Below, piece by piece: positions 4,123 through 63,473 of a stretch of DNA of 64,000 bases (positions are counted from its first letter, which is position 1; each line of letters opens with the position of its first letter). The notes under the pieces were generated by a model, which saw only the letters and a program-made list of their open reading frames with translations, was not told the origin of the DNA and did no database searches. Source of the stretch: Planctomycetota bacterium. Lineage in GTDB: Bacteria; Planctomycetota; JAJSAM01; JAJVHW01. Both the position numbers and the translations under genes were made by a program. The DNA lies in the NCBI GenBank assembly GCA_965248445.1, contig CBDFJG010000001.1:407979-471978 (forward strand), written 5' to 3'.

Positions 4123-5289
4123 ATGGTTCAAATCAACTTCGCGCTCCGAGAGGTCAACTGCAAGGTCGTGTACTACGGTCCGGGCATGAGTGGCAAGACC
4201 ACCAACCTCGAGATCGTGCACCAGAAGGCACCTGAGTCGAACAAGGGCGAACTCACCTCCATCGCAACGGAAGGTGACCGCACGCTGTTCTTCGACTTCA
4301 TGCCGCTCGACCTCGGGACGATCGCGGGCATGCGCACGCGGTTCCAGCTGTACACGGTGCCGGGTCAGGTCTACTACAACTCGACTCGCAAGCTGGTGTT
4401 GCAGGGCGTTGACGGCGTCGTGTTCGTCGCCGACTCCTCCGCGAGCAAGATGGACGAAAACCTCGAGTCGCTCGAGAACCTCAAGAACAACCTCGCCGAG
4501 TACGGCAAGGACATTCGCGAGCTCCCGATCGTCATCCAGTGGAACAAGCGCGACCTGCCGGACGCGCTCCCCGTCGAGCAACTGAACGCGAAGATCAACT
4601 CGTGGGGCTGCCCCACGTTCGAGGCCGTCGCGATCACCGGCGAGGGCGTCTTCCCGACACTCAAGTGCCTGTCCGGGATGGTCCTCGAGACCTTGAACCG
4701 CGATCAGCGCGAGGCGCCCGGCGCCCCGGGCCGGCCTCAGGCGACGAAGCTCGCCGCGCCGGCCGCCCAGGCGGCTCCTGCAGCCCCCGCGGTCATCGCC
4801 GCACCAGCGCCTGTGGCGCCGGTCGCGGCGCAGCCGGCGGTCGCAGCCGCTTCGGCGGCCTCCCCCATCCGGCAGGGCTTCGGTAACACCATGGGCGGTT
4901 CTCCGCCTGCTCCGCCGGTCGGCGTACCCAGTCGCGCGGGGCGGTTCGGTGGCGGCGGAGGCAGCGTATTCGATGAGATCAACGAGCAGGCCGCAGAGCA
5001 GCCGGCGCGCCCGGCCGCGTCCCCCGGCCTCGTCGGTGGTGAAAACGAAGGACCCTGGCAGCAGCAGCAGCAGAAGCAGAAGCAGCAGCGGCGCCAGGTA
5101 GACGCTTCGCCGCTCGAGACGTCGACCATTCGCACCACGCCCAAGAGCTCGGCGGGTGACGCACGGCCGCATCTGCGTATCAAGCAGGAGAAGTCGGTCC
5201 CGTGGGTGGCGGTCACACTCGGAGCACTCATCGTCATCGCGGTCGGCATCATCCTCTTCACGACCGGGCTCGTGAGCCTGCCTGTTTAG
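4123..5289 (+). CDS. mglA: MglA-family Ras-like GTPase with ~190-aa low-complexity C-terminal extension ending in a TM helix
   Basis: Residues 1-195 align closely with M. xanthus MglA (INCKVVYYGPG-MSGKTTN P-loop, RTLFFDF, TVPGQ switch II, NKRD). The extension is Ala/Pro-rich, contains a QQQQQKQKQQ run and ends in the hydrophobic stretch WVAVTLGALIVIAVGIILFTTGLV. Confidence 0.8.
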   Translation: MVQINFALREVNCKVVYYGPGMSGKTTNLEIVHQKAPESNKGELTSIATEGDRTLFFDFMPLDLGTIAGMRTRFQLYTVPGQVYYNSTRKLVLQGVDGVVFVADSSASKMDENLESLENLKNNLAEYGKDIRELPIVIQWNKRDLPDALPVEQLNAKINSWGCPTFEAVAITGEGVFPTLKCLSGMVLETLNRDQREAPGAPGRPQATKLAAPAAQAAPAAPAVIAAPAPVAPVAAQPAVAAASAASPIRQGFGNTMGGSPPAPPVGVPSRAGRFGGGGGSVFDEINEQAAEQPARPAASPGLVGGENEGPWQQQQQKQKQQRRQVDASPLETSTIRTTPKSSAGDARPHLRIKQEKSVPWVAVTLGALIVIAVGIILFTTGLVSLPV

Positions 5290-43241: not shown

Positions 43242-43501
43242 GTGAGGCTCTCCGCTGCATCTCGGTGCGCGGATCGCTCCGTCGGCGGAGCCGCGTCCCG
43301 GCGGGCCCAGCGCAGCAGGAGGTACGGCCACAGGGCCGCGGCGCCCGGCAGGATCAACAGTTTGAATCCCCAGGTGCTGCCGGCAGCAACCGGATCGATC
43401 CGGCGCGCGCCAACGCTCGCAAACGCGATTGCGAACAGCAGTCCGATGCCCGCATAGAGCAGCAGCGCCAGGACGATCGCCTCCGCTGTCCCGTGAGACA
43501 T
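43238..43501 (-). CDS. small two-TM membrane protein
   Basis: GGAGGGGAAGG RBS. 87 aa. Confidence 0.45.
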   Translation of the reverse strand: MSHGTAEAIVLALLLYAGIGLLFAIAFASVGARRIDPVAAGSTWGFKLLILPGAAALWPYLLLRWARRDAAPPTERSAHRDAAESLT

Positions 43502-43677
43502 TCAGCCTTCCCCTCCGTGCGCGACCTCGAATGGCCCAACGCGGTAGGCTCTCCGAACCGAGACCCACGTCTCCCCATTCCGTCCCTGCACGATTTTGCC
43601 GTACCTCGTCTCCGGGCCGTGCAGAGGAATATGAGGAGCTACCGGAGGGTTCGACAGGCTCGACAGCAGGGGGAAGC

Positions 43678-45306
43678 ATGGGGAACGTGTCCGTTGCGCG
43701 CTGGGATGAACTGGAGGACCGCGCTCCGGCGCATGCTCTGGTCGAGGGTGTCGACCTCGTGGTCGTCCGCTACGACGACAGTGTGTCCGTTTTCTACGGA
43801 CGCTGTCTGCACCGCGGGGCACTGCTCTCCGACGGCTTCGTGCGCGGCCAGGATCTGATCTGCGGCGTCCACGACTGGGACTACCGGCTGGACAGCGGGG
43901 TCAGCGCGTACAAGAACGACGAGGTGCTCCCTCGCTTCCGCTCCTGGCGCGAGGACGGCAACGTCCTGGTGGATGACACCGAGATCGCCGCGTGGGCGCT
44001 CGAGCATCCGCAGCCGTTCAACCGGGCGGCGTTCCAGGGCGCGTATCAGGACATCCACGGCACTCCGGACGAGCCCCGCACCAAGCTGATCCAGAAGCTC
44101 GCAGCGAAGGGCATCGAGGGCGTCGGGCACCACGGCCCGGTGGCGGCCATGGGAGTACCGGCACCGAACCTCCCTCGGTGGGACGACATCCAGTTCGTGA
44201 CAGCGCAGCTCTGGAAGGTCCCCCAGCTCGATGAGGTGCCGGTCGCCAGCGAGGTGGTGATCGGGCCGGGGGCAAAGAAGCCACTGCGGCTCGATATCCC
44301 GCTCTTCGTATCGGACATGAGCTTCGGCGCGCTGTCCGAGGAGGCGAAGGTGTCGCTCGCGATGGGCGCGGAGCTCGCCGGGACCGGGATCTGTTCCGGC
44401 GAGGGCGGGATGCTGCCCGAGGAGCAGGCCGAGAACTCGCGCTACTTCTACGAGCTCGCATCCGCCCGCTTCGGCTTCTCCATGGACAAGCTGCGACGCG
44501 TGCAAGCGTTCCACTTCAAGGGCGGTCAGGGTGCGAAGACCGGCACCGGAGGCCACCTGCCGGGGTCGAAGGTGAAGGGCAAGATCGCGGAGGTGCGCCA
44601 GCTCCCCGAGGGGCAACAGGCGGTCTCGCCGGCTCGGTTCCCCGAGTGGGACTCTCTCGAACCGTTCAAGGAGTTCTCCCACGCCGTGCGCGAGGAGACC
44701 GGGGGGATCCCGATCGGGTTCAAGCTCTCGGCCCAGCACGTGGAGAAGGACATCGACGCCGCCCTCGAGATCGGCGTCGACTACATCATCCTGGACGGCC
44801 GCGGCGGCGGCACCGGTGCGGCACCGCTCATCTTCCGCAACAACATCTCCGTGCCGACCATCCCGGCGCTGGCGCGCGCGCGGCGCCACCTTGATCGCTG
44901 TGGCGCGGACCAGGTGTCGCTCGTCATCACCGGCGGCCTGCGCGTACCGGACGACTTCGCGAAGGCGTTGGCGCTCGGCGCCGACGCGGTCGCGGTGTCG
45001 AACGCCGCCATGCAGGCGATCGGCTGCATCGCGATGCGCGCGTGCCACACCAACAACTGCCCTGTCGGGATCGCGACACAGAAGAAGCACCTGCGCGAGC
45101 GCCTCCCGGTGAACGAAGCAGCCAAGCGGCTGCACCGGTTCTTCCACGCATCGACGCACCTCATGCAGGTGCTGGCGCGAGCCTGCGGGCACACGCGCCT
45201 CGATCAGTTCAACGTCGACGACCTGACGACCTGGAAGCGCGACATGGCGCACCTCGCGGGCATCCGCTACGCGGGCGTGGGGTCGGTACAGGGAGAGGAC
45301 CGGTGA
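43678..45306 (+). CDS. Rieske [2Fe-2S] domain fused to glutamate-synthase-type FMN domain (GltS central-domain-like)
   Basis: Rieske ligands CLHRG...CGVHDWDY. GltB FMN-domain motifs (GEGGMLPEE, FKGGQGAKTGTGGHLPG, ILDGRGGGTGAAP). Confidence 0.7.
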   Translation: MGNVSVARWDELEDRAPAHALVEGVDLVVVRYDDSVSVFYGRCLHRGALLSDGFVRGQDLICGVHDWDYRLDSGVSAYKNDEVLPRFRSWREDGNVLVDDTEIAAWALEHPQPFNRAAFQGAYQDIHGTPDEPRTKLIQKLAAKGIEGVGHHGPVAAMGVPAPNLPRWDDIQFVTAQLWKVPQLDEVPVASEVVIGPGAKKPLRLDIPLFVSDMSFGALSEEAKVSLAMGAELAGTGICSGEGGMLPEEQAENSRYFYELASARFGFSMDKLRRVQAFHFKGGQGAKTGTGGHLPGSKVKGKIAEVRQLPEGQQAVSPARFPEWDSLEPFKEFSHAVREETGGIPIGFKLSAQHVEKDIDAALEIGVDYIILDGRGGGTGAAPLIFRNNISVPTIPALARARRHLDRCGADQVSLVITGGLRVPDDFAKALALGADAVAVSNAAMQAIGCIAMRACHTNNCPVGIATQKKHLRERLPVNEAAKRLHRFFHASTHLMQVLARACGHTRLDQFNVDDLTTWKRDMAHLAGIRYAGVGSVQGEDR

Positions 45307-47232
45307 CCGCACCGCAGGCCGGGAGCACCGAGAGCCGCACCGTCTGGCACCGCGCCCTCGCGCCCGAAGAGTTGCCGGAGGGGCGTGTCACCTCCGTCAC
45401 CTGCGGACTGAAGACGCTCTGCGTGACGCACTTCGGTGGCGAGTACGCGGCGCTCGACAACCGTTGCCCTCACCAGGGTGGCCCGCTCGGCGAAGGCTCC
45501 ATCGAGAAAGGACTGTTGCGCTGCCCCTGGCACGGCTGGGACTACCACCCGACCACGGGCAAGGCGCCCGGCTTCGACGACGGTGTGGAGACGTTCCCGA
45601 TACAGGTTCGCGAGGACGGCGTCTACGTGGGCCTCGAAGAGGAGCAGCCGCACGTCACCACGGTCTCCGACGTGATGGTCGAGACGATGGTGAACTGGGG
45701 TGTCACGTCGGTGTTCGGCATCGTGGGACACAGCAACCTCGGGCTCTCGGACGCCGTCCGCGTCCAGGCCGAGGGCGGCGGACTGCAGTACTTCGGGGTT
45801 CGTCACGAGGGCGCCGCGTCGTTCGCCGTGTCCGCCTACGGCAAGCTCACCGGGCGGCCTGCCGCATGCCTTGCAATCGCGGGTCCCGGCGCGACGAACC
45901 TGCTCACGGGACTGTGGGACGCGAACGTGGACCGCGCACCGGCGCTGGCACTGACCGGTCAGGTCGACACCCAGGTCCTCGGCCCCGGCGCGTTCCAGGA
46001 AGTGGACCTCGTCGCGGCATTCGGCCGTGTAGCGCAGTGGGCACAACCGGTGCTGCACACGAGCAGACATTCGGAACTCGTGAATCTCGCGTGCAAGAGC
46101 GCGATCCTGAATCGCGGGGTGTCGCACCTGATCTTCCCCGACGAGGTGCAGGTGCTGCCCGCGCCCGCCGGAGCGAAGGCGGGCGGACCGGCTGGGCGGC
46201 TGCCCGCTCGCGAGATCGCACCGGCTGCGGAGGCACTTGATGAGGCTCTCGCGCTGCTGCGCCGGTCCAAGCGCCCGCTGATCATCGTCGGCCACGGCGC
46301 GCGCTTCCACATGGACGGCGTGATCGCGTTGGCGGAGCGACTGGGCGCCGCGGTCGCCACCACGTTCAAGGGAAAGGGCCTGATCGCAGACGACCACGAG
46401 CTCGCGTGTGGTGTGCTCGGGCGCAGCGGGACCCCCATCGCCAGACACGGGGATCACACCCAAGAGGCCGACCATCCAGGTCGACTTCGACGCGATGACG
46501 CTGGGCAAGTTCCACGCCGTGGACGTGCCCGTGCTGGGCGAGATCGGCGTCACGACAGGGCTTCTGAGAGAGCGCCTGACTGACGGCGACCTCTGGGTCG
46601 ACCAGCGGTCGGATGTGGCGGCCCGTTGGACGATCTGGCGCGCAGAGAAGACCCGTCGCGAACAGGACGACTCCGGCAGCGGCATCAACTCGGCGGCCAT
46701 CTTCGCTGCGCTGAACAGGACGCTGCCCGCGGACGCGATCATCGCCGTCGACGTCGGCAACAACACCTACTCGTTCGGACGCTACTTCGAGCCGCGGCAA
46801 CAGGCCGTGCTGATGTCGGGTTACCTGGGTTCGATCGGATTTGCCCTGCCGGCGGCGATGGGTGCATGGGCCGCGACGCAGGAAGACGATCCACGCTTCA
46901 AGGGCCGCACCGTGGTCTCCATCTCGGGCGATGGCGGGTTCGGCCAGTACATGGTCGAACTGCTCACAGCGGTGAAGTACGGCATGAACATCACACACGT
47001 CCTGCTGAACAACAGCGAACTGGGGAAGATCAGCAAGGAGCAGCGCGCCGGCAAGTGGCACGTCTGGCAGACATCACTGCACAACCCCGACTTCGCGGAG
47101 TACGCCCGCATCTGCGGCGCACACGGGGCGCGCGTGACCGAGAAGAGCGACCTGGATGCCGCGCTCTCGGCTGCCCTGGCGTACGACGGCCCGGCGCTGG
47201 TCGAGATCGTCTCCGACGCGCTGCTCGTGTAG
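45303..47232 (+). pseudogene. Rieske [2Fe-2S] domain fused to thiamine-pyrophosphate enzyme (ALS/POX-like); reading frame switches 0 to +1 near 46440-46470 with about 40 expected residues missing
   Basis: GTGA overlap with the upstream stop. Rieske CPHQGGPLGEG...CPWHGWDY. TPP N-terminal and central domains end at GVLGRSGTPIA; the TPP-binding C-terminal domain (GDGGFGQYM) continues in the +1 frame. Confidence 0.5.
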
Positions 47233-56040: not shown

Positions 56041-57264
56041 ATGACGACACGGGCAACACGCCTCGAGTCAAGTCCGCGCGAGCGTCGCGTCATCCGCCGG
56101 ATGGAGGCGCGCGGCGAGAGCGGGCTGGAAGATGCTCTGCTCACGTTGCGCGGCACCGTCGCGTCTGCGCGCTACCTGCTGACACGTCTCTACGCCGTCG
56201 GCGGCGAGGGTGCGGTGTACGAGTGCAAGGACATCCTCAATCCGCGCGGCCGGCGACTCGTCGCCAAGCTGCCGTTGCACTCCTACCACCGCCCGGCCCG
56301 ACTACAGGGCGACCGCATCCGGGAGATGCGCCGCGCACTCCAGATCGAAGCGAGCCACCTGCTCGGGAACTGCACGCAATTCATGGCGGAGGGAATCGGC
56401 CTGTTCGAGTTCCAGAATCTTCTGCTCGATCCGTGCCGCGGCGGCGCGTTCGCCGAACGCGAGCCGCTCCTGGTCATGGAGAAGCTACCGGGACACGATC
56501 TGGACCGCTGGCTCGCGCGGGCGCACCGGTCGGGCAAGCCGCCCGAGCTCATGCGGCGTACGCTGGACCGCGTCGTGGTCGTGCTCCTGCAAGCGCTCAC
56601 GGACCTGCGCAGCCGAGGCCTGATCTACGCGGACCTTCGGCCCGGCAACATCCGCATGATCGGCCGGCCGAGCCGGCGCATCCGGTTGATCGACGCCGGG
56701 AGCCTGGTCAGTGTGGACGACGACAGCGGCCGCTTCCCGCACGTCCCGGCATACCTCCCTTGCGACCTTTTCGCCGATCGCCTCTCCGGCAAACCGATCC
56801 GCGCCACCGACGAGGTGCAGGCGATCATGGCCGGACGGACCCTGTTCGAAGTCGCGACCGGGCGCGTGCCACGGCCGGGCAGCGAACCCGACCTCTGGTG
56901 GCTCGACAGGAGCGACGTGTCACCTCCCGTCGCGGGTGTGATCACGGGTCTCCTGGACGGGCAGTTCCCGAGCGCGAAGTCAGCCCTCGCGTGGCTGGCC
57001 CGCCGGGCACGTCGCCGCGTGCCGGGAGGAAACGCGGTGAACCGTCCTACACAGCCGGCGGCCGTTGCGGTCGCGCCGAAGGCCGCCCCGCCGCGGAACT
57101 CCCAGGAAGGTCAAGGACTGGCGTGGACGTCTACAGCGCCGTCCGTGTCGGCGCAGCGCACGCAGCCGGCGGCGGAGAAGCGTTCTCAGAACGCGCGTGC
57201 GGCGCAGCGCAAGCGATCCGGCCTCCGGGGCGTCGTGCGCCGGTTGCTGCGCCGCCGCGACTAG
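56041..57264 (+). CDS. Ser/Thr protein-kinase-like protein with basic C-terminal tail
   Basis: Gly-rich loop GGEGAVYEC, VAK lysine, catalytic-loop-like YADLRPGNI, and DAG in place of DFG. Confidence 0.55.
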   Translation: MTTRATRLESSPRERRVIRRMEARGESGLEDALLTLRGTVASARYLLTRLYAVGGEGAVYECKDILNPRGRRLVAKLPLHSYHRPARLQGDRIREMRRALQIEASHLLGNCTQFMAEGIGLFEFQNLLLDPCRGGAFAEREPLLVMEKLPGHDLDRWLARAHRSGKPPELMRRTLDRVVVVLLQALTDLRSRGLIYADLRPGNIRMIGRPSRRIRLIDAGSLVSVDDDSGRFPHVPAYLPCDLFADRLSGKPIRATDEVQAIMAGRTLFEVATGRVPRPGSEPDLWWLDRSDVSPPVAGVITGLLDGQFPSAKSALAWLARRARRRVPGGNAVNRPTQPAAVAVAPKAAPPRNSQEGQGLAWTSTAPSVSAQRTQPAAEKRSQNARAAQRKRSGLRGVVRRLLRRRD

Positions 57265-58814
57265 ACCGTCCAGAACGGTTTGGCCGCAGCCGCTTCCGCG
57301 ACGCGCTTCTCGAGTCGGTCCGCGTCGGCATCCGCGGCGTGGGCGCACCAGCCCTCGACGATGCCGGCCGCACGATCCAGCTCGCGCGCTGCGGCGGGAT
57401 CGGACGGGCGTCCGATGCGCTCCATGAGAGTGCCCGCCACGTACACGTCGTTCAGGCGGCCCAGTCCATCCTGCAGACGCGATAGGCGCCGCGCGAATCG
57501 GGCGGCCGGACGGCGCTTGTACAGCGAGCCGAAGAACTCGACGCCGTAGCGCAGTTTCTTGACGTCGATCCGGAGCGCGTGTCGTTCCTCCGGCGGCGCC
57601 GTCGGGAAGCGCTTGGCCTTTTTGCGCAACTTGGCGAACAGGCGGCCGAGCAGTTGAGCGCCGAGCTCACGGGCGGGCACGAACAACCGCGCGGAGTCGG
57701 CCGAGAGCTCCTGACGCCGCCAACCGCGGGTCGCGATCCACTCGCCGAAGACCAGCACGGTGTCCGTGAACATCGGATCCGAGACCGCCTGTCGAGCGTT
57801 GGCCCGCGCCCGTGTCCGCGCTTCGCCGAGAGCTGCCACCAGGTGCGACAGCGACTCCTCGGACGGCAGTGCACGCACGATGGGCGCGACGAGTTCGTCG
57901 ACGACGACATCGAGGTCGCGGATGGGGCCGAGTCGCGCACCCAGTGCCTTGAGCAGCGCGTTCATGCGGCCGTGCTCTGTGGCCGGAAGCACGCCCTTGA
58001 ACGTCGAGAGCACAGATCGGGCGCGGCGGCAGCCGACGCGCATCTGATGAACACCCTCGACGTCGTCGTTCTGCATCAGCGGGCGCTCGTTGGCCACGAT
58101 CTGCTCGAGGGCGGAACCGAAGATCGCGACCAGCGCGTCGTCCACGGTGGAGTCGCGATCGAGTTCGACGGCCCGCGCGCGCACCGGCTCCGGGAGCACG
58201 CCGTCCGTCAGCCGATATCCGCGCGCCGCCTTCGAGTCGACGGAGACGCGCAGCGGGACGGACGCGCGGATCTCACGGGCGATCTCGTAGATCGCCTCCG
58301 GAGCACCTCGCACGAGTTCGAGTTCAACCTCGCAGATCGGCTCGCGGCGATCGCCTGAGACGACCTCGCCGACATCGATGTCGAGGCTGATCGCTCCGTC
58401 CGCGACGCCGGTGCTCAGCTCGCGGGACGACCGGCGGATGTCCGTCCGGAACAGAGGCACGAGCGGTCGTTCCCCCACGGCGGCCTGCACTCTGGCTCGC
58501 AGGACGATGTCAGGGATCGCATTTATGTCCGGCTGGAGCCCCGGCACGCGGATCTCGCTCTCGACGCGCACCAGGATGCCACCCGCTGAGGCGGCGTCCG
58601 TCTTGGCGCACTGGATGTGCGTCCTGCCGCGGCGCCGCACGCGCAGGGCGATCCCCCGCCGCCGCAGATCCTGGCCGGGCGTGTCGTAGTAGACGCTGAG
58701 CAGGTGCAGGTGCCGTGGGCGCCCTGACGCCCGGGCACGCAACTCCGGGATGCGCCGCAGCCTGTTGACCTGCGTCGCGTCGGCCAGGAGTTTCAGTTCG
58801 ATCTCATTCGCCAT
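57261..58814 (-). CDS. CYTH domain + CHAD domain protein
   Basis: N-terminal EIELK (ExExK) CYTH motif. C-terminal helical CHAD region. Confidence 0.65.
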   Translation of the reverse strand: MANEIELKLLADATQVNRLRRIPELRARASGRPRHLHLLSVYYDTPGQDLRRRGIALRVRRRGRTHIQCAKTDAASAGGILVRVESEIRVPGLQPDINAIPDIVLRARVQAAVGERPLVPLFRTDIRRSSRELSTGVADGAISLDIDVGEVVSGDRREPICEVELELVRGAPEAIYEIAREIRASVPLRVSVDSKAARGYRLTDGVLPEPVRARAVELDRDSTVDDALVAIFGSALEQIVANERPLMQNDDVEGVHQMRVGCRRARSVLSTFKGVLPATEHGRMNALLKALGARLGPIRDLDVVVDELVAPIVRALPSEESLSHLVAALGEARTRARANARQAVSDPMFTDTVLVFGEWIATRGWRRQELSADSARLFVPARELGAQLLGRLFAKLRKKAKRFPTAPPEERHALRIDVKKLRYGVEFFGSLYKRRPAARFARRLSRLQDGLGRLNDVYVAGTLMERIGRPSDPAAARELDRAAGIVEGWCAHAADADADRLEKRVAEAAAAKPFWTV

Positions 58815-58932
58815 TCCTGCTCCCGATCTCCGGCGCCCCGACCCCGAGCGCCCTGCTGGATGTTCGCACACCGGGCTCCGAGACCCGATTCTGGTCGGCA
58901 CGCGCAGGCGTAGCGTTAGCGTTGCGCTTGCA

Positions 58933-59517
58933 GTGAGTGAGTCAGCACAACCGTTCGTGACCGTGGTCACCGGCGTGCCCAGATCGGGCACGTCGATGAT
59001 GATGCGGATGCTCGAACAGGGCGGGCTGCCGCCGCTCACCGACACGCTCCGGACGGCGGACCGGGACAACCCGAACGGATACTACGAGTTCGAACCCGTC
59101 AAGCGCCTCCCGGACGACACGTCCTGGCTGCCGGACGCGGAAGGGCATGCCGTCAAGATGGTCTACGCGCTGTTGCGCCATCTACCGCTCGACCGCCCGT
59201 ACCGGGTCGTTCTGATGACGCGCAACCTGGACGAAGTCGTCCGCTCGCAGAACCGGATGCTCGAACGCCTAGGTCGCCCACCGCGGAAGATCGCCGACGA
59301 GAAGGCGGTGGCAATGTTCCGCTCGCACCTGGTGGACACCGAACGGTGGCTTGACGCCGCGCCGAGCGTCACGTGGCGCAAGCTCGACTACAACGACCTG
59401 CTGCGCGACCCGGGCGCGGTGCTCGCTACACTGAACGAGATGTTCGGTGGATCTCTTGACGTCCCGACCATGAGCGCAGTCGTCGATCCGGCTCTCTATC
59501 GCAACCGCATCGAGTAA
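58933..59517 (+). CDS. sulfotransferase family protein
   Basis: GTG start inferred. PAPS-binding-like TGVPRSGTS motif. Confidence 0.5.
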   Translation: MSESAQPFVTVVTGVPRSGTSMMMRMLEQGGLPPLTDTLRTADRDNPNGYYEFEPVKRLPDDTSWLPDAEGHAVKMVYALLRHLPLDRPYRVVLMTRNLDEVVRSQNRMLERLGRPPRKIADEKAVAMFRSHLVDTERWLDAAPSVTWRKLDYNDLLRDPGAVLATLNEMFGGSLDVPTMSAVVDPALYRNRIE

Positions 59518-59549
59518 CCGCACGGCGTTGCCGCGCTGCGTAGCCGCGC

Positions 59550-59888
59550 CTACTCGAACGAGGCGATCGCGTCGTCGACCGTGGGGTGCACGGCGAACAC
59601 CTCGAGGAGGCCGAGTGTCGAGAAGCACTTCTGAATGAGCGGGGGTGGCGCGGCGATCGCGAACCCGCCGCCGCTCTTCTGCGCAGCCTTGTGCGCCTCG
59701 AGCAAGAGGACGATGGAGCCCGAGTCGAGGAAGGACGTCTTGGCGAGGTCCAGCACGATGCGGCTACCCGCCTCGTCGATGACGCGCGTGAACGCGCCGG
59801 GAGTCGCTTCCATCGCGCCTCGATCGAAGTCGCCCTCGACTCGCACGACAGTCACGTCTCCGCGCTCGTCACTCAAGATGCGCAGCAT
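59550..59888 (-). CDS. STAS-domain anti-sigma-factor antagonist (SpoIIAA-like)
   Basis: 112 aa with a typical STAS fold sequence (FLDSGSIVLLLEAHK). Confidence 0.7.
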   Translation of the reverse strand: MLRILSDERGDVTVVRVEGDFDRGAMEATPGAFTRVIDEAGSRIVLDLAKTSFLDSGSIVLLLEAHKAAQKSGGGFAIAAPPPLIQKCFSTLGLLEVFAVHPTVDDAIASFE

Positions 59889-59924
59889 CGCGTCTCCGCT
59901 CCGGTTCCGTTCCCCTACCCGCCC

Positions 59925-60942
59925 TTATGACGAGGCGAGCCCCTGCAGCAGTTCCCCGGCCTTGAAGATCAGTTTCAGCGACTTCTCGACCTGCTTGTTC
60001 ACGGCCTTGGGCGGCTTTCCGCCGTCCAGCTTCGAGCGCGCCTTCTCCCGCGCGCGCTTCCCGCCTCCGAGCATACCGAGCGCGCGCGCCTCCGGGGGCT
60101 TCCGCTTCGTCGGAATCGCCGTCTCGACCTGAGCAGCCGCGTTCTCGATGTGCTCGATCGCCGCGGCAATCTCCACCCGGGCCTGGGCTCGATCCGGCGC
60201 GTCCTTCTCCAGCCGGTAGAGGGCGGAGAGCCCGTCATCCCCGGCCAGGAACGTCTCGTGCAGGGCGTGCTCGAACCCACCGACGCAGACGGCCGCCGTC
60301 TGCACGACGCGCAGGTCGTCGAACACCACCTTGCCGGGCTTCGTGACCTGGAACACCCCGAGCGTCGGGTAGACGGGGAACGTCTGTCCCGCGGCCGCCA
60401 CCTCGCCGACGAGGGTCCAGGGGGCCGACTCCGAGGCCCGGGCCTGGAACGTCACGATCGAACCACTGTGGTCGATGGCGACGTACAGCAGGTTCGCCCC
60501 CGCGAAGAACTCGTCGCCGACGGCGGACCCCGACAGGTGCGTGGCACCGAACGTCTGGAGTCCCCCGGCAGTGCGCAGCACGACCGACGAGTAGAACTCG
60601 GTGGGCGGTCGGGCACCGGGGAGGGCCATCTCGATCGAGAAGCGACCGTTGTCCTCGAGCTTCGCGGCCGCCTTGTCGTCGTTCGCGCCGAGACACGCCT
60701 CCACGCGGAACGGCGGATAGAGCGGCCGTTCGTAGACGAGCGAGCCGGCCGCCTGCGGCCCCTCGGGATCGAGGGGGCCCTTGAGCTTGCTCGCCGCCTC
60801 GACAAAGCGGTCGCCCTTCTTGCTCTTGATCTTCCACTTGATGTCGTTGCCGCGCTGCGAGACCTTCCCCCCGACGAGTGCGCATCCCGGAAGCACCCAC
60901 AGTGCGATTGCGAGCGCGGCGATCGTGGCCGTGATCCTCAAC
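59925..60942 (-). CDS. lipoprotein, hypothetical
   Basis: TTG start inferred, with a GGAGG RBS 7 nt upstream. Lipobox LPGC. Confidence 0.45.
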
Positions 60943-62221
60943 TCTCCACCTCCGATCCCCAGGATACGCCACGGCCTCCGCGGTGCGTCACGCTCAACGC
61001 AAACCACGCGACCAGCGTGGCCGCTGTCATCACCCCGCCCACGACCAGGAGCACCGGGTGGAAGCCGTGGGCATCGACGCCCGCCCCGATGAAGGGGGCC
61101 ATTCCGAAGAAGCACAGGCGGAAGATCAGGCTGCTGAGGGACAGGTAGCCAGCCCGGTCCTCGGATGGGACGCGCATCTGCTCCTCGTGCAGGAGCGCAG
61201 GCGAGCGAACGCCGCGCAGGAACGTCAGGGCGAAGTACCAGACGAACCCGAACAGCCCAAACGAGAGGGCCATGCCGCCGTACCCCACGCCCACCAGCAC
61301 CACGCACCCGAGCAGCGCGGGCAGGAGTCCGATGCGCGTGATGATGCGGTCGCTCCCGAGCGCGGCGAACGCGACTGTGAAGTTGGCGACCGCCCAGATC
61401 GGTCCGATCCACGCGTCGGGCACGCCGGCTTCACGCGCGTAGAGCGGGAGCATCCAGACCGGGACGAACGTCGCGAGACCGAACGCGGTGCTCGCGAAGA
61501 CGATCGCCGCCAGCTTGCGATCGCCGCCGAACACGCGCCCGAGCATTCGCACCATCTGCAGCATGTGTCCGCCCGAGGGCGGCTTCGGCCGCCGTGGCTC
61601 GACCAGCCGCAGCACGACGAAGAACGCCGCGATCCAGGCGACGACCTGCATCACGAACGGGAGCCGTGGCCACGCCGCATACAGCAGGCCCGCTGAGAGC
61701 GCGGCGACGGCCTCCGAACTCTGTCCGAAGAACCGCCTCCGTCCGTCCCACTTGCGGAACGAGCGTTCCTGTCCCGCCTCCCGCAGTGATTCGAACAGGA
61801 GCGCGACGTCGCAACCGGAGATCAGCGCGAGGCCCGCACCGAGGATGATCTCCGCCAGCAGTGCGATGGCGAAGTCGTTCGCCACGACGTAGACGGACCA
61901 GCCCACCACCTGGAGACACACGGCGAGTAGCAGCGTGCGGCGGTACCCCAGCCGGTCCGCCACATAGCCGGACGGGAACTCGAGCGCCGCAACCGAGACC
62001 CCGAACAGACCCTGCAAGAGGAAGATCTCGCGCATCGACATGCCGAGTGCGTCTTGCCAGAAGAGCGTGACGATGGCGACCGGGAAGAGCGCCATCATCA
62101 GCGCCTGGAACGCCATCAGGAGACGCGGGTTGCGGCTTGAGTCGTTCACGCCGCCGAGGGTCGGCCGTGGGCACGGGCCGGGCGAGTTCTGCTCGCGCGC
62201 GCCGGCGAGACAGAATGCCAT
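60938..62221 (-). CDS. MFS transporter
   Basis: 12-TM pattern. The true start is possibly the ATG at 62116. Confidence 0.6.
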   Translation of the reverse strand: MAFCLAGAREQNSPGPCPRPTLGGVNDSSRNPRLLMAFQALMMALFPVAIVTLFWQDALGMSMREIFLLQGLFGVSVAALEFPSGYVADRLGYRRTLLLAVCLQVVGWSVYVVANDFAIALLAEIILGAGLALISGCDVALLFESLREAGQERSFRKWDGRRRFFGQSSEAVAALSAGLLYAAWPRLPFVMQVVAWIAAFFVVLRLVEPRRPKPPSGGHMLQMVRMLGRVFGGDRKLAAIVFASTAFGLATFVPVWMLPLYAREAGVPDAWIGPIWAVANFTVAFAALGSDRIITRIGLLPALLGCVVLVGVGYGGMALSFGLFGFVWYFALTFLRGVRSPALLHEEQMRVPSEDRAGYLSLSSLIFRLCFFGMAPFIGAGVDAHGFHPVLLVVGGVMTAATLVAWFALSVTHRGGRGVSWGSEVES

Positions 62222-62224
62222 CGC

Positions 62225-62989
62225 GTGCGCGACCTGCTCTCCCGGCCGATACGACTCTCACTCGTCCTCGCGATCCTGGTCGCGGCGACCGGCGCAGTCT
62301 GGTCGTTCGGGCCGATCCCTCAAGACCAGGCGTACCACGCGTTCGCCGACACGCGCACCTGTCTCGGCTGCAGCAACTGCGGCGACGTGTTCTCGAACTT
62401 GCCGTTCTTGCTCGTCGGGTTCTTCGGCCTGCGCGCACTCTTGGCAGGACGCGTGGTCGTGCGGGCCCCGTGGGAGCGGCGCGCCTGGGGCGTCTTGTTC
62501 GCCGGCATTGCCCTCACAGCGTTCGGATCGGCGTACTACCACCTGGCACCGGACGACGCGCGACTGGCGTGGGACCGGTATCCGATGACGCTCGTGTTCA
62601 CGTCACTGACAGCGCTGCTGGTGGGCGAGCGCGTCAGCCCGTGGCTGGGCAAGCACCTGCTCTGGCCGCTCATCATCGCCGGAGTCGGAAGCGTGGCGCT
62701 GTGGCGCTACGGCAACGGCGATCTGCGGCTCTACGCGACCCTGCACTACGTCCCGCTCGCGGGCGTGCCGCTGCTGCTCTGGCTCTTCCCCCGCCGGTAC
62801 ACCCGCGCCCTCGACCTGCTCGTCTGCGGCGTGCTGTACGGCATCGCCAAGGCGACCGAGGCGCTCGACCACGAGGTCTTCGAGGCGCTCGGCATCGTCA
62901 GCGGCCACACGCTGAAGCACCTGTTCGCAGCCGCGTGCACCGCGATGCTCGTCGTGCATGCGGTCCGCCGCGAGCGGATCAGCGACTGA
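62225..62989 (+). CDS. ceramidase-like polytopic membrane protein (putative)
   Basis: 7-TM protein. Resembles the alkaline ceramidase family. Confidence 0.4.
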   Translation: MRDLLSRPIRLSLVLAILVAATGAVWSFGPIPQDQAYHAFADTRTCLGCSNCGDVFSNLPFLLVGFFGLRALLAGRVVVRAPWERRAWGVLFAGIALTAFGSAYYHLAPDDARLAWDRYPMTLVFTSLTALLVGERVSPWLGKHLLWPLIIAGVGSVALWRYGNGDLRLYATLHYVPLAGVPLLLWLFPRRYTRALDLLVCGVLYGIAKATEALDHEVFEALGIVSGHTLKHLFAAACTAMLVVHAVRRERISD

Positions 62990-63047
62990 CCGCGCGTGCG
63001 GTAGGCTGTCCCACTGTCCATCGCGACTGGAACCCGGAGAACCTCAG

Positions 63048-63473
63048 ATGAGCAGCAAGAAGGTCCTGATCGGCGCGGCGGTGCTGATCGTCGGCGTCGT
63101 CGGCTACGTGTCGGTGTTCATGGGTCACTCCGCCGCGTCCCTGACGCCCGTGGAGGCCGGCAGTACGGCCAAAGCCGGGTTGATCTCGTCCGGCGAAGCG
63201 GTGGATCTCGCAGCCCACGCGCGGGCACAGGGGCTGACCGTCTTCGAATTCATGTCGCCCATGTGAATGGGCTGCAAGGTGCTCGCGCCTCGGGTCGAGG
63301 CGCTCGTGAACGGCCGGGACGACGCGACGCTGCGGGTCATCAACATCGGGGGCGGCAGTTCCGCCGTGGTCAACCAGTACCAGGTGCCGTCGGTCCCCTA
63401 CCTCGTGCTCTACGAGGACGGCGTCGAGGTCGCGAGGGGCCGCGAAGAAGTGCTCGCCCGCCTGGGCGACTGA
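63048..63473 (+). CDS. membrane-anchored thioredoxin-fold protein with in-frame TGA at active site (candidate selenoprotein, U-M-G-C motif)
   Basis: ATG at 63048 with a GGAGA RBS. Single N-terminal TM helix. The track ORFs 62958..63266 and 63267..63473 are in one frame, separated only by the TGA at 63264-66. Their concatenation aligns with thioredoxin (TVFEFMSPM-U-MGCKVLAP ... VPYLVLYEDGVEV). Confidence 0.6.
63285..63303 (+). promoter_or_regulatory. candidate bacterial SECIS hairpin (7-bp GC stem, GGGUC loop) 19 nt 3' of the UGA
   Basis: gcgcctc-gggtc-gaggcgc has perfect complementarity. Its position and G-containing loop are compatible with bSECIS. Confidence 0.45.

Follow-up and report, generated by a model that had tools for sequence, protein, structure and literature searches.

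At positions 63048-63473 on the forward strand of the 64-kb stretch of DNA analysed here (the window), two open reading frames in the same frame are separated by nothing but a TGA triplet at 63264-63266. Does this triplet end one small gene ahead of another, or is it read as selenocysteine (Sec) within a single gene? An initial annotation of the locus had favoured a membrane-tethered Sec-containing thioredoxin and named a pseudogene broken by a nonsense mutation as the alternative. Translation confirmed the arrangement on which that proposal was built. A frame of 141 codons runs from the ATG at 63048-63050 to the terminal TGA at 63471-63473, and the TGA at 63264-63266 is its sole internal break. 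A Shine-Dalgarno-like GGAG (63036-63039, + strand) lies 8 nt upstream of the ATG, as read from the sequence. The read-through product of 141 aa has the form MSSKK...FEFMSPM-U-MGCK...ARLGD, in which U is residue 73. In public records the gene appears as two separate 'hypothetical' fragments (72 and 68 aa), and relatives are recorded as fragments likewise. The 68 codons downstream of the UGA are intact and of coding type (GC3 of 0.95), in a window with 68.6% G+C whose genes typically have high GC3. In a scan of the window for stop codons, this was the only site at which a stop splits one domain between two coding-like stretches. We conclude, with a probability of about 0.85, that 63048-63473 is one gene for an anchored or secreted thioredoxin-fold protein, the UGA codon 73 of which would be decoded as Sec by means of a hairpin located downstream. 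The conclusion is drawn because TGA recurs at the first active-site Cys, the reading frames remain intact and the hairpin is found in six relatives; the choice of codons and published constraints on bacterial SECIS elements (bSECIS) lend further support.

The product of the read-through frame is recognisably a thioredoxin. With U replaced by C, it matched the Pfam Thioredoxin model PF00085 at residues 60-129 with 32.6 bits (cut-off 23.5), and the match therefore crosses the TGA, as had been expected of a thioredoxin fold spanning both frames. The score of 32.7 bits against TIGR01068, the equivalog model of canonical TrxA, stays below the cut-off of 96.8 bits, indicating that the protein is not a canonical TrxA. 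An NCBIfam scan with E up to 1 returned generic thioredoxin and PDI models and one weak RNA polymerase match, all below their cut-offs, and no match to selenoprotein-specific models such as SaoT (NF040730), the HUIPC-motif model (NF047660) or VPGUxxT (NF041383). When the family profile was compared with solved structures, thioredoxins and the a-domains of PDI were matched with E of 1e-16 to 1e-29. We modelled the Cys orthologue P0001 with AlphaFold from an alignment of 50 homologues, and obtained a pLDDT of 88.4 and a pTM of 0.80 (an alignment of three rows gave a pLDDT of 43.8). In this model, the elements follow the order beta-alpha-beta, CxxC-helix, beta-alpha-beta-beta-alpha, the CxxC at 63-66 heads the helix 64-79, and the nearest neighbours in the PDB are classical, E. 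coli-type thioredoxins. The codon for Pro117 (63396-63398, + strand), within SVPYLVLY, corresponds to the cis-proline of the thioredoxin fold: in the family alignment Pro117 and Cys76 are invariant, and in the profile match Pro117 pairs with the I-P of solved thioredoxins.

The N-terminal anchor proposed by the initial annotation was also recovered. Residues 6-24 (63063-63119, + strand; VLIGAAVLIVGVVGYVSVF) follow a basic N-terminus, and the Kyte-Doolittle hydropathy of these 19 residues averages 2.58. From this composition, the segment is predicted to be a signal peptide or a signal-anchor. An N-in topology is suggested by the basic residues (KK) on its N-terminal side and would place the redox domain outside the cytoplasm. 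Equivalent hydrophobic segments are present at the N-termini of L004 and L005, two of the TGA-containing relatives described below, and also in Cys-form sequences; that of a third such relative, L009, is weaker (mean 1.25).

The neighbouring genes are as had been described, namely an MFS transporter (60938-62221, - strand) and a ceramidase-like membrane protein (62225-62989, + strand), the latter being a weak match with 21.3 bits against a cut-off of 32.5 bits. The block of CHAD/CYTH, MFS and ceramidase-like genes at 57261-62989 in the window is syntenic with positions 1-3174 of L004. Four extra genes, including a fusion of Ser/Thr kinase, FGE and sulfatase, stand between the block and the Sec-thioredoxin gene in L004, so that the place of this gene beside the ceramidase-like one is not a conserved feature. 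Among the loci compared, there was no shared gene neighbourhood pointing to a partner or substrate.

Elsewhere in the window, a fusion of a Rieske domain and a TPP enzyme (pyruvate oxidase/PoxB-like) at 45042-47232 (+ strand) is broken near 46440-46450. The frame is lost after ...GVLGRSGTPIA and picked up again as TGITPKRPTIQVDFD; compared with E. coli PoxB, at least a dozen residues are absent. The break is a deletion with a frameshift, reflecting either a pseudogene or an assembly error. The adjacent ORFs at 43429-45306 and 45042-46583 (both + strand) each start with Rieske-type [2Fe-2S] motifs (CxH...CxxH, by eye); the former then resembles a glutamate-synthase-like FMN domain and the latter a TPP enzyme (PDB match), an unusual pairing. 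The two overlap by ~260 nt. Further away, a small Ras/Arf-like GTPase at 4123-5289 (+ strand), with Pfam matches to Arf and Gtr1/RagA, carries an Ala/Pro/Gln-rich extension of ~200 residues and a C-terminal hydrophobic segment. It stands among TPR/HEAT/vWA-type proteins (translations read by eye), and we take its N-terminus to resemble MglA. By this gene, and by no other in the window, the lineage looks Myxococcota-like.

Relatives of the gene were collected at the protein level. A word-indexed search returned one homologue, the full-length P0001, which is 48% identical to the window protein and has the active site WCGAC. An exhaustive profile search of 1.84 billion protein representatives, with P0001 and the two native fragments of the window as the query, yielded 798 relatives, the top list including the window's own fragments (P0003 and P0005). 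Many relatives of 54-73 aa either end at or before the CxxC (...FEFMAPW) or start just after it. We retrieved the DNA of six such fragment-type relatives (L004-L009), whose assemblies belong to different samples and are kept at ENA, JGI and Logan; the window protein is 35-61% identical to them, or 37-61% if the domain is compared. The wider family consists of Cys forms, called 'thioredoxin family protein' or 'thiol-disulfide isomerase/thioredoxin' where they are named, and the Cys-form relatives with a taxon label come from Acidobacteriota and Verrucomicrobiota MAGs. Motifs specific to the family are G-P-Q-L-E-A-L and S-W-x-S-P-V-A. Scans of contigs added no members: a first scan of genome contigs found none, a second found generic thioredoxins of unrelated taxa (L010, with WCGPC, is an ordinary one), and a scan of metagenome contigs found two unrelated-looking WCGPC thioredoxins outside the family. 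The contig of another relative, P0081 (JGI 3300050046), carries ORFs at 77-301 and 329-505 in the same frame, a layout typical of a Sec form.

The TGA occupies the position at which a redox-active residue is expected. It is the first codon of the U-M-G-C motif (63264-63275), and in six Cys forms (P0001, P0002, P0007, P0008, P0024 and P0030; WCGAC or WCPGC) the residue aligned to it is the leading Cys of CxxC, in agreement with the earlier assignment of the UGA to the first redox Cys. The aligned codon is TGC in the Cys forms L001 and L076, for which DNA was available. All six fragment-type relatives have TGA exactly at the first-Cys codon, giving the active sites W-U-PGC (L004, L005), F-U-PAC (L006), F-U-NAC (L007), F-U-GAC (L008) and W-U-PAC (L009). 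In each of them, 65-68 conserved in-frame codons follow the TGA up to the homologous stop. Thus, the orthologues do not all stop at this position, and the C-terminal half is conserved in all seven TGA forms, the window included. Nei-Gojobori dN/dS values among the Sec forms for the downstream part range from 0.25 to 0.95, but at such divergence they are too saturated and too distorted by GC3 bias to be informative. A further relative, P0152, comes from another metagenome (a JGI sample) and opens with M-G-C just as the downstream fragment of the window does; of the 68 residues, 6 differ between the two, for the most part by replacements of similar chemistry. In a neighbour-joining tree drawn without support values, Sec and Cys forms are interleaved, a pattern that has been reported for selenoprotein families of thiol oxidoreductases (PMC1794560).

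These observations bear on two trivial explanations of the TGA. An ordinary Cys thioredoxin could have acquired TGA in place of TGC by a single base change, whether through a recent chance nonsense mutation or through a fault of sequencing or assembly, and the broken TPP-enzyme gene is another disrupted gene in the same window. On the other hand, both fragments of the exact sequence are present in NCBI/ENA records, the near-identical P0152 was called from the same start after the TGA, and six further relatives carry the triplet. A TGA in common and a downstream frame kept at such divergence rule out an error or a recent mutation for practical purposes, and we regard this account as barely tenable. 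Even less weight attaches to a genome-wide reassignment of UGA to a sense codon (codes 4 or 25) with no involvement of Sec. TGA terminates 10 of the 18 confidently coding ORFs in the window, this gene included, the G+C content is high and no other coding region of the window is interrupted by TGA. TGA is thus a normal stop here, which excludes such a reassignment.

We then turn to the RNA. The initial annotation had pointed out a stem of seven GC-rich base pairs with a GGGUC loop, and this hairpin, GCGCCUC-GGGUC-GAGGCGC, is present within the coding sequence at 63285-63303 (+ strand). Its perfect 7-bp stem begins at the 19th nt past the UGA; RNAfold adds one pair, giving 8 bp with the loop GGU. 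The spacing from the UGA to the apical loop is 25-26 nt, and the local minimum free energy (MFE) is -15.4 kcal/mol, which makes it the most stable of the hairpins in the seven TGA forms. The six others have AGGUU, AGGUC or AGUUG loops and energies of -11.0 to -14.6 kcal/mol, and the stem of L005 carries a bulged U. Published constraints for bSECIS elements are a loop of 3-9 nt, a stem of 4-16 bp, 16-37 nt from the UGA to the loop, a G in loop positions 1-2 followed by G or U, and an MFE of at most -7.5 kcal/mol (PMC13188914); the hairpins of the window and of L004-L009 all lie within these limits. Rfam gave zero matches over the 64-kb window at gathering thresholds, and no SECIS or other meaningful match in 63200-63400 with E up to 10. 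Within the window, 2.9% of the 1325 TGA triplets are followed, at a SECIS-like distance, by a perfect stem of 7 bp or more whose loop starts with G; for stems of 8 bp or more under the same loop and distance criteria, the share is 0.5%. An inverted repeat of 6 bp (GCCCAU-GUGA-AUGGGC; 63257-63272, + strand) places the UGA itself in a tetraloop of the 86-nt MFE fold. It is probably incidental, and by eye it is not conserved in the other TGA forms.

How much of this hairpin could be a by-product of the coding sequence? Overall folding energy alone is uninformative on this point, because the MFE of segments of 57-86 nt is not unusual against dinucleotide shuffles (z = -0.5 to -0.1) and the segment of a Cys homologue is equally stable. 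We therefore recoded the nine codons around the hairpin synonymously, following the codon usage of the window, and recorded the fraction of recoded sequences at least as stable as the native one. The seven Sec forms gave fractions of 0.018 (window), 0.036, 0.19, 0.056, 0.0013, 0.014 and 0.0027, and the two Cys forms gave 0.49 and 0.17. There are zero indels between the TGA and the hairpin across the seven TGA forms, so the spacing is fixed. RNAalifold recovered the same helix from these forms unaided. Its seven pairs are formed in 91.8% of the alignment cells; in controls with the 3' side displaced by 1-3 columns, the value falls to 37-67%. Compensatory changes affect two pairs, from C-G to G-C (columns 35/51) and from G-C to U-A (columns 36/50), and a covariation control, in which 22 of 500 shuffles reached the observed score, is moderately convincing; as the seven TGA forms are related, such counts represent few events. 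The hairpin is accordingly conserved in the TGA homologues, with compensatory changes.

Part of this conservation stems from the protein, since the helix overlies a conserved peptide, G/A-P-Q/R-L/V-E-A/D-L. Codon choice within the peptide separates the Sec forms from the Cys forms. The Pro codon in the 5' arm is CCU in 6 of the 6 Sec forms that have Pro there, its U pairing with the A of GAG, and CCU accounts for 7.2% of the Pro codons in the window. The corresponding codon is CCC in L001 and CCG in L076, and the latter Cys form encodes the motif as A-P-Q-I-E-A-L, yet forms only a weak 5-bp helix. With moderate confidence, taking together seven related sequences and the DNA of two Cys forms, we consider that the hairpin is probably selected as RNA and is specific to the Sec forms.

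One further member of the family has the hairpin but not the TGA. L075 (90-260 of a 580-bp contig with 0.9x coverage, ENA ERZ27321363) contains a perfect GGGCCUC-AGUUG-GAGGCCC hairpin, accompanied by the codons CCU and UUG. Where the Sec forms have TGA, it carries GCG, for Ala; the part upstream is divergent and lacks one residue. L075 may be a remnant SECIS after the loss of Sec, or an artefact of low coverage. A hairpin without TGA could mean that part of the hairpin is tolerated or maintained without Sec.

Two other readings accept the family as real or its two halves as functional, and they deserve a closer comparison with the Sec reading. In one, the gene is a relic in this lineage: real selenoproteins do belong to the family, but here the UGA is no longer decoded, for instance because the Sec machinery was lost, and a stub of 72 residues is all that is made. 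Consistent with this, Sec machinery was found neither in the window nor in the fetched loci. ARAGORN detected no tRNA genes, and hence no tRNA-Sec, in the 64-kb window or the fetched loci, and a crude motif scan of the window revealed no hallmarks of SelA, SelB or SelD. The broken TPP-enzyme gene indicates that gene decay or assembly error does occur in the window. Furthermore, the window protein departs from near-invariant sites of the family, having M-U-M-G-C in place of W/F-U-P-x-C and GGG in place of S-W (residues 102-104), so that it has lost S-W as well as the conserved Trp and Pro on either side of the active site; these departures could be a sign of relaxed constraint. However, P0152, from an independent sample, shares M-U-M-G-C and the loss of S-W, which are therefore not errors, and its few and mostly conservative differences imply that purifying selection continues after the UGA. 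A decaying gene would also not be expected to hold the most stable hairpin of the seven with a perfect stem of 7-8 bp, to keep the rare CCU codon or to leave the downstream 68 codons intact with their high GC3. We consider a relic unlikely, and the pseudogene named as the alternative by the initial annotation likewise, because the TGA is common to divergent lineages and P0152 differs at so few downstream positions.

In the other reading, translation would stop at the UGA and re-initiate at the AUG directly adjoining it (UGA-AUG, 63264-63269), and the polypeptides of 72 and 68 aa would reassemble. Thioredoxin fragments can complement each other, and both the window and P0152 have ATG as the codon following the TGA. 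The six other TGA forms, however, have CCC, AAC or GGG there, and their nearest start codon lies at a varying distance of 3 to 14 codons downstream. Re-initiation is therefore not conserved. The reassembled product would lack the nucleophilic residue of the active site, and neither the conserved hairpin nor the rare codons would be explained. A split gene thus seems very improbable, clearly more so than a relic.

The reading of a single gene with Sec at codon 73 accommodates these observations. The product would be a small thioredoxin-fold thiol-disulfide oxidoreductase with an N-terminal membrane anchor or signal peptide. During its synthesis, the hairpin at 63285-63303 would recruit SelB carrying Sec-tRNA(Sec), presenting the G-G/U motif in its apical loop. 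The UGA would then be decoded as Sec and translation would run on to the stop at 63471-63473. In the folded protein, the U-x-x-C centre is predicted to head the active-site helix, to face cis-Pro117 and to cycle between a selenolate/thiol and a selenenylsulfide. Its substrates are probably found in the envelope or periplasm; they and the course of electron flow are predictions. Trp and Pro flanking the active site normally tune the redox properties of thioredoxins, and the M-U-M-G-C centre has neither. Sec insertion itself, which we infer, requires selA, selB, selD and selC elsewhere in the genome. If the reading is true, the source bacterium is a selenium user, and these genes are predicted to be found there.

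With Sec at the UGA, the two 'hypothetical' fragments become one complete redox protein. The family, in which Sec forms occur alongside Cys forms, is a compact case of a SECIS hairpin fitted into a conserved peptide motif by the choice of rare codons, and general knowledge of selenoproteins is unchanged by it. We suggest only tentatively, and with rather less than even odds, that the TGA forms and the fragment-type relatives make up an uncatalogued subfamily of small anchored or secreted thioredoxins, which would bear the SECIS element in the codons for G-P-Q-L-E-A-L and would include an atypical sub-lineage with M-U-M-G-C. The interleaving of Sec and Cys forms in the tree suggests that such a subfamily has switched repeatedly between Sec and Cys.

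The comparison with known systems may begin with the RNA element. Like the bSECIS of the E. coli fdhF type, the hairpin of the window lies within the coding sequence downstream of the UGA and has a small apical loop with G followed by G or U, and its spacing and energy fall within the bSECIS consensus. The distance from the UGA to the loop is about 18 nt in fdhF, and the 25-26 nt of the window are longer. The hairpin has no detected sequence similarity to the fdhF element and matches no SECIS model of Rfam.

With respect to architecture, TlpA, ResA and CcmG/DsbE are anchored, extracytoplasmic proteins with Cys-only domains of the Redoxin/AhpC-TSA type that carry an extra insert. The window protein resembles them in having an N-terminal anchor followed by a single thioredoxin-fold CxxC domain, and a role in envelope redox reactions is likely by this analogy. 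The best matches of its family are, in contrast, classical thioredoxins and PDI a-domains, and neither cytochrome-maturation genes nor any other conserved gene context was found at the loci compared.

The closest counterparts are selenoproteins of the thioredoxin type. A Sec-thioredoxin (Trx, PF00085, UxxC) is an experimentally verified selenoprotein, for example WP_010956703.1 (PMC13188914), and Sec-thioredoxins have been predicted in Geobacter and, in two copies, in the myxobacterium Anaeromyxobacter dehalogenans (PMC1794560). The window protein shares with these the PF00085 domain, Sec as the first residue of CxxC, a hairpin that closely follows the UGA within the gene and widespread Cys homologues. 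Compared by description, it differs in its N-terminal hydrophobic anchor or signal and its low TrxA score, as well as in the two motifs of its family and an active site, M-U-M-G-C, devoid of Trp and Pro. The 'Trx-like 1' class (COG0526, UxxC) is among the most abundant selenoprotein classes of marine metagenomes, with 321 Sec against 7,880 Cys forms in the GOS data (PMC2398784). Likened to it again by description, our family has UxxC, few Sec forms among many Cys forms and the name 'thiol-disulfide isomerase/thioredoxin' at JGI, although 'Trx-like 1' is a broad COG-defined class, unlike the subfamily of the window. The earlier statement that UxxC proteins of the thioredoxin fold are an established class of selenoproteins is thus borne out (PMC13188914, PMC1794560, PMC2398784), whereas the novelty claimed for the locus was overstated, because UxxC selenoproteins of the thioredoxin type are both known and abundant. 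What is perhaps new is the membrane-anchored subfamily to which the window protein would belong.
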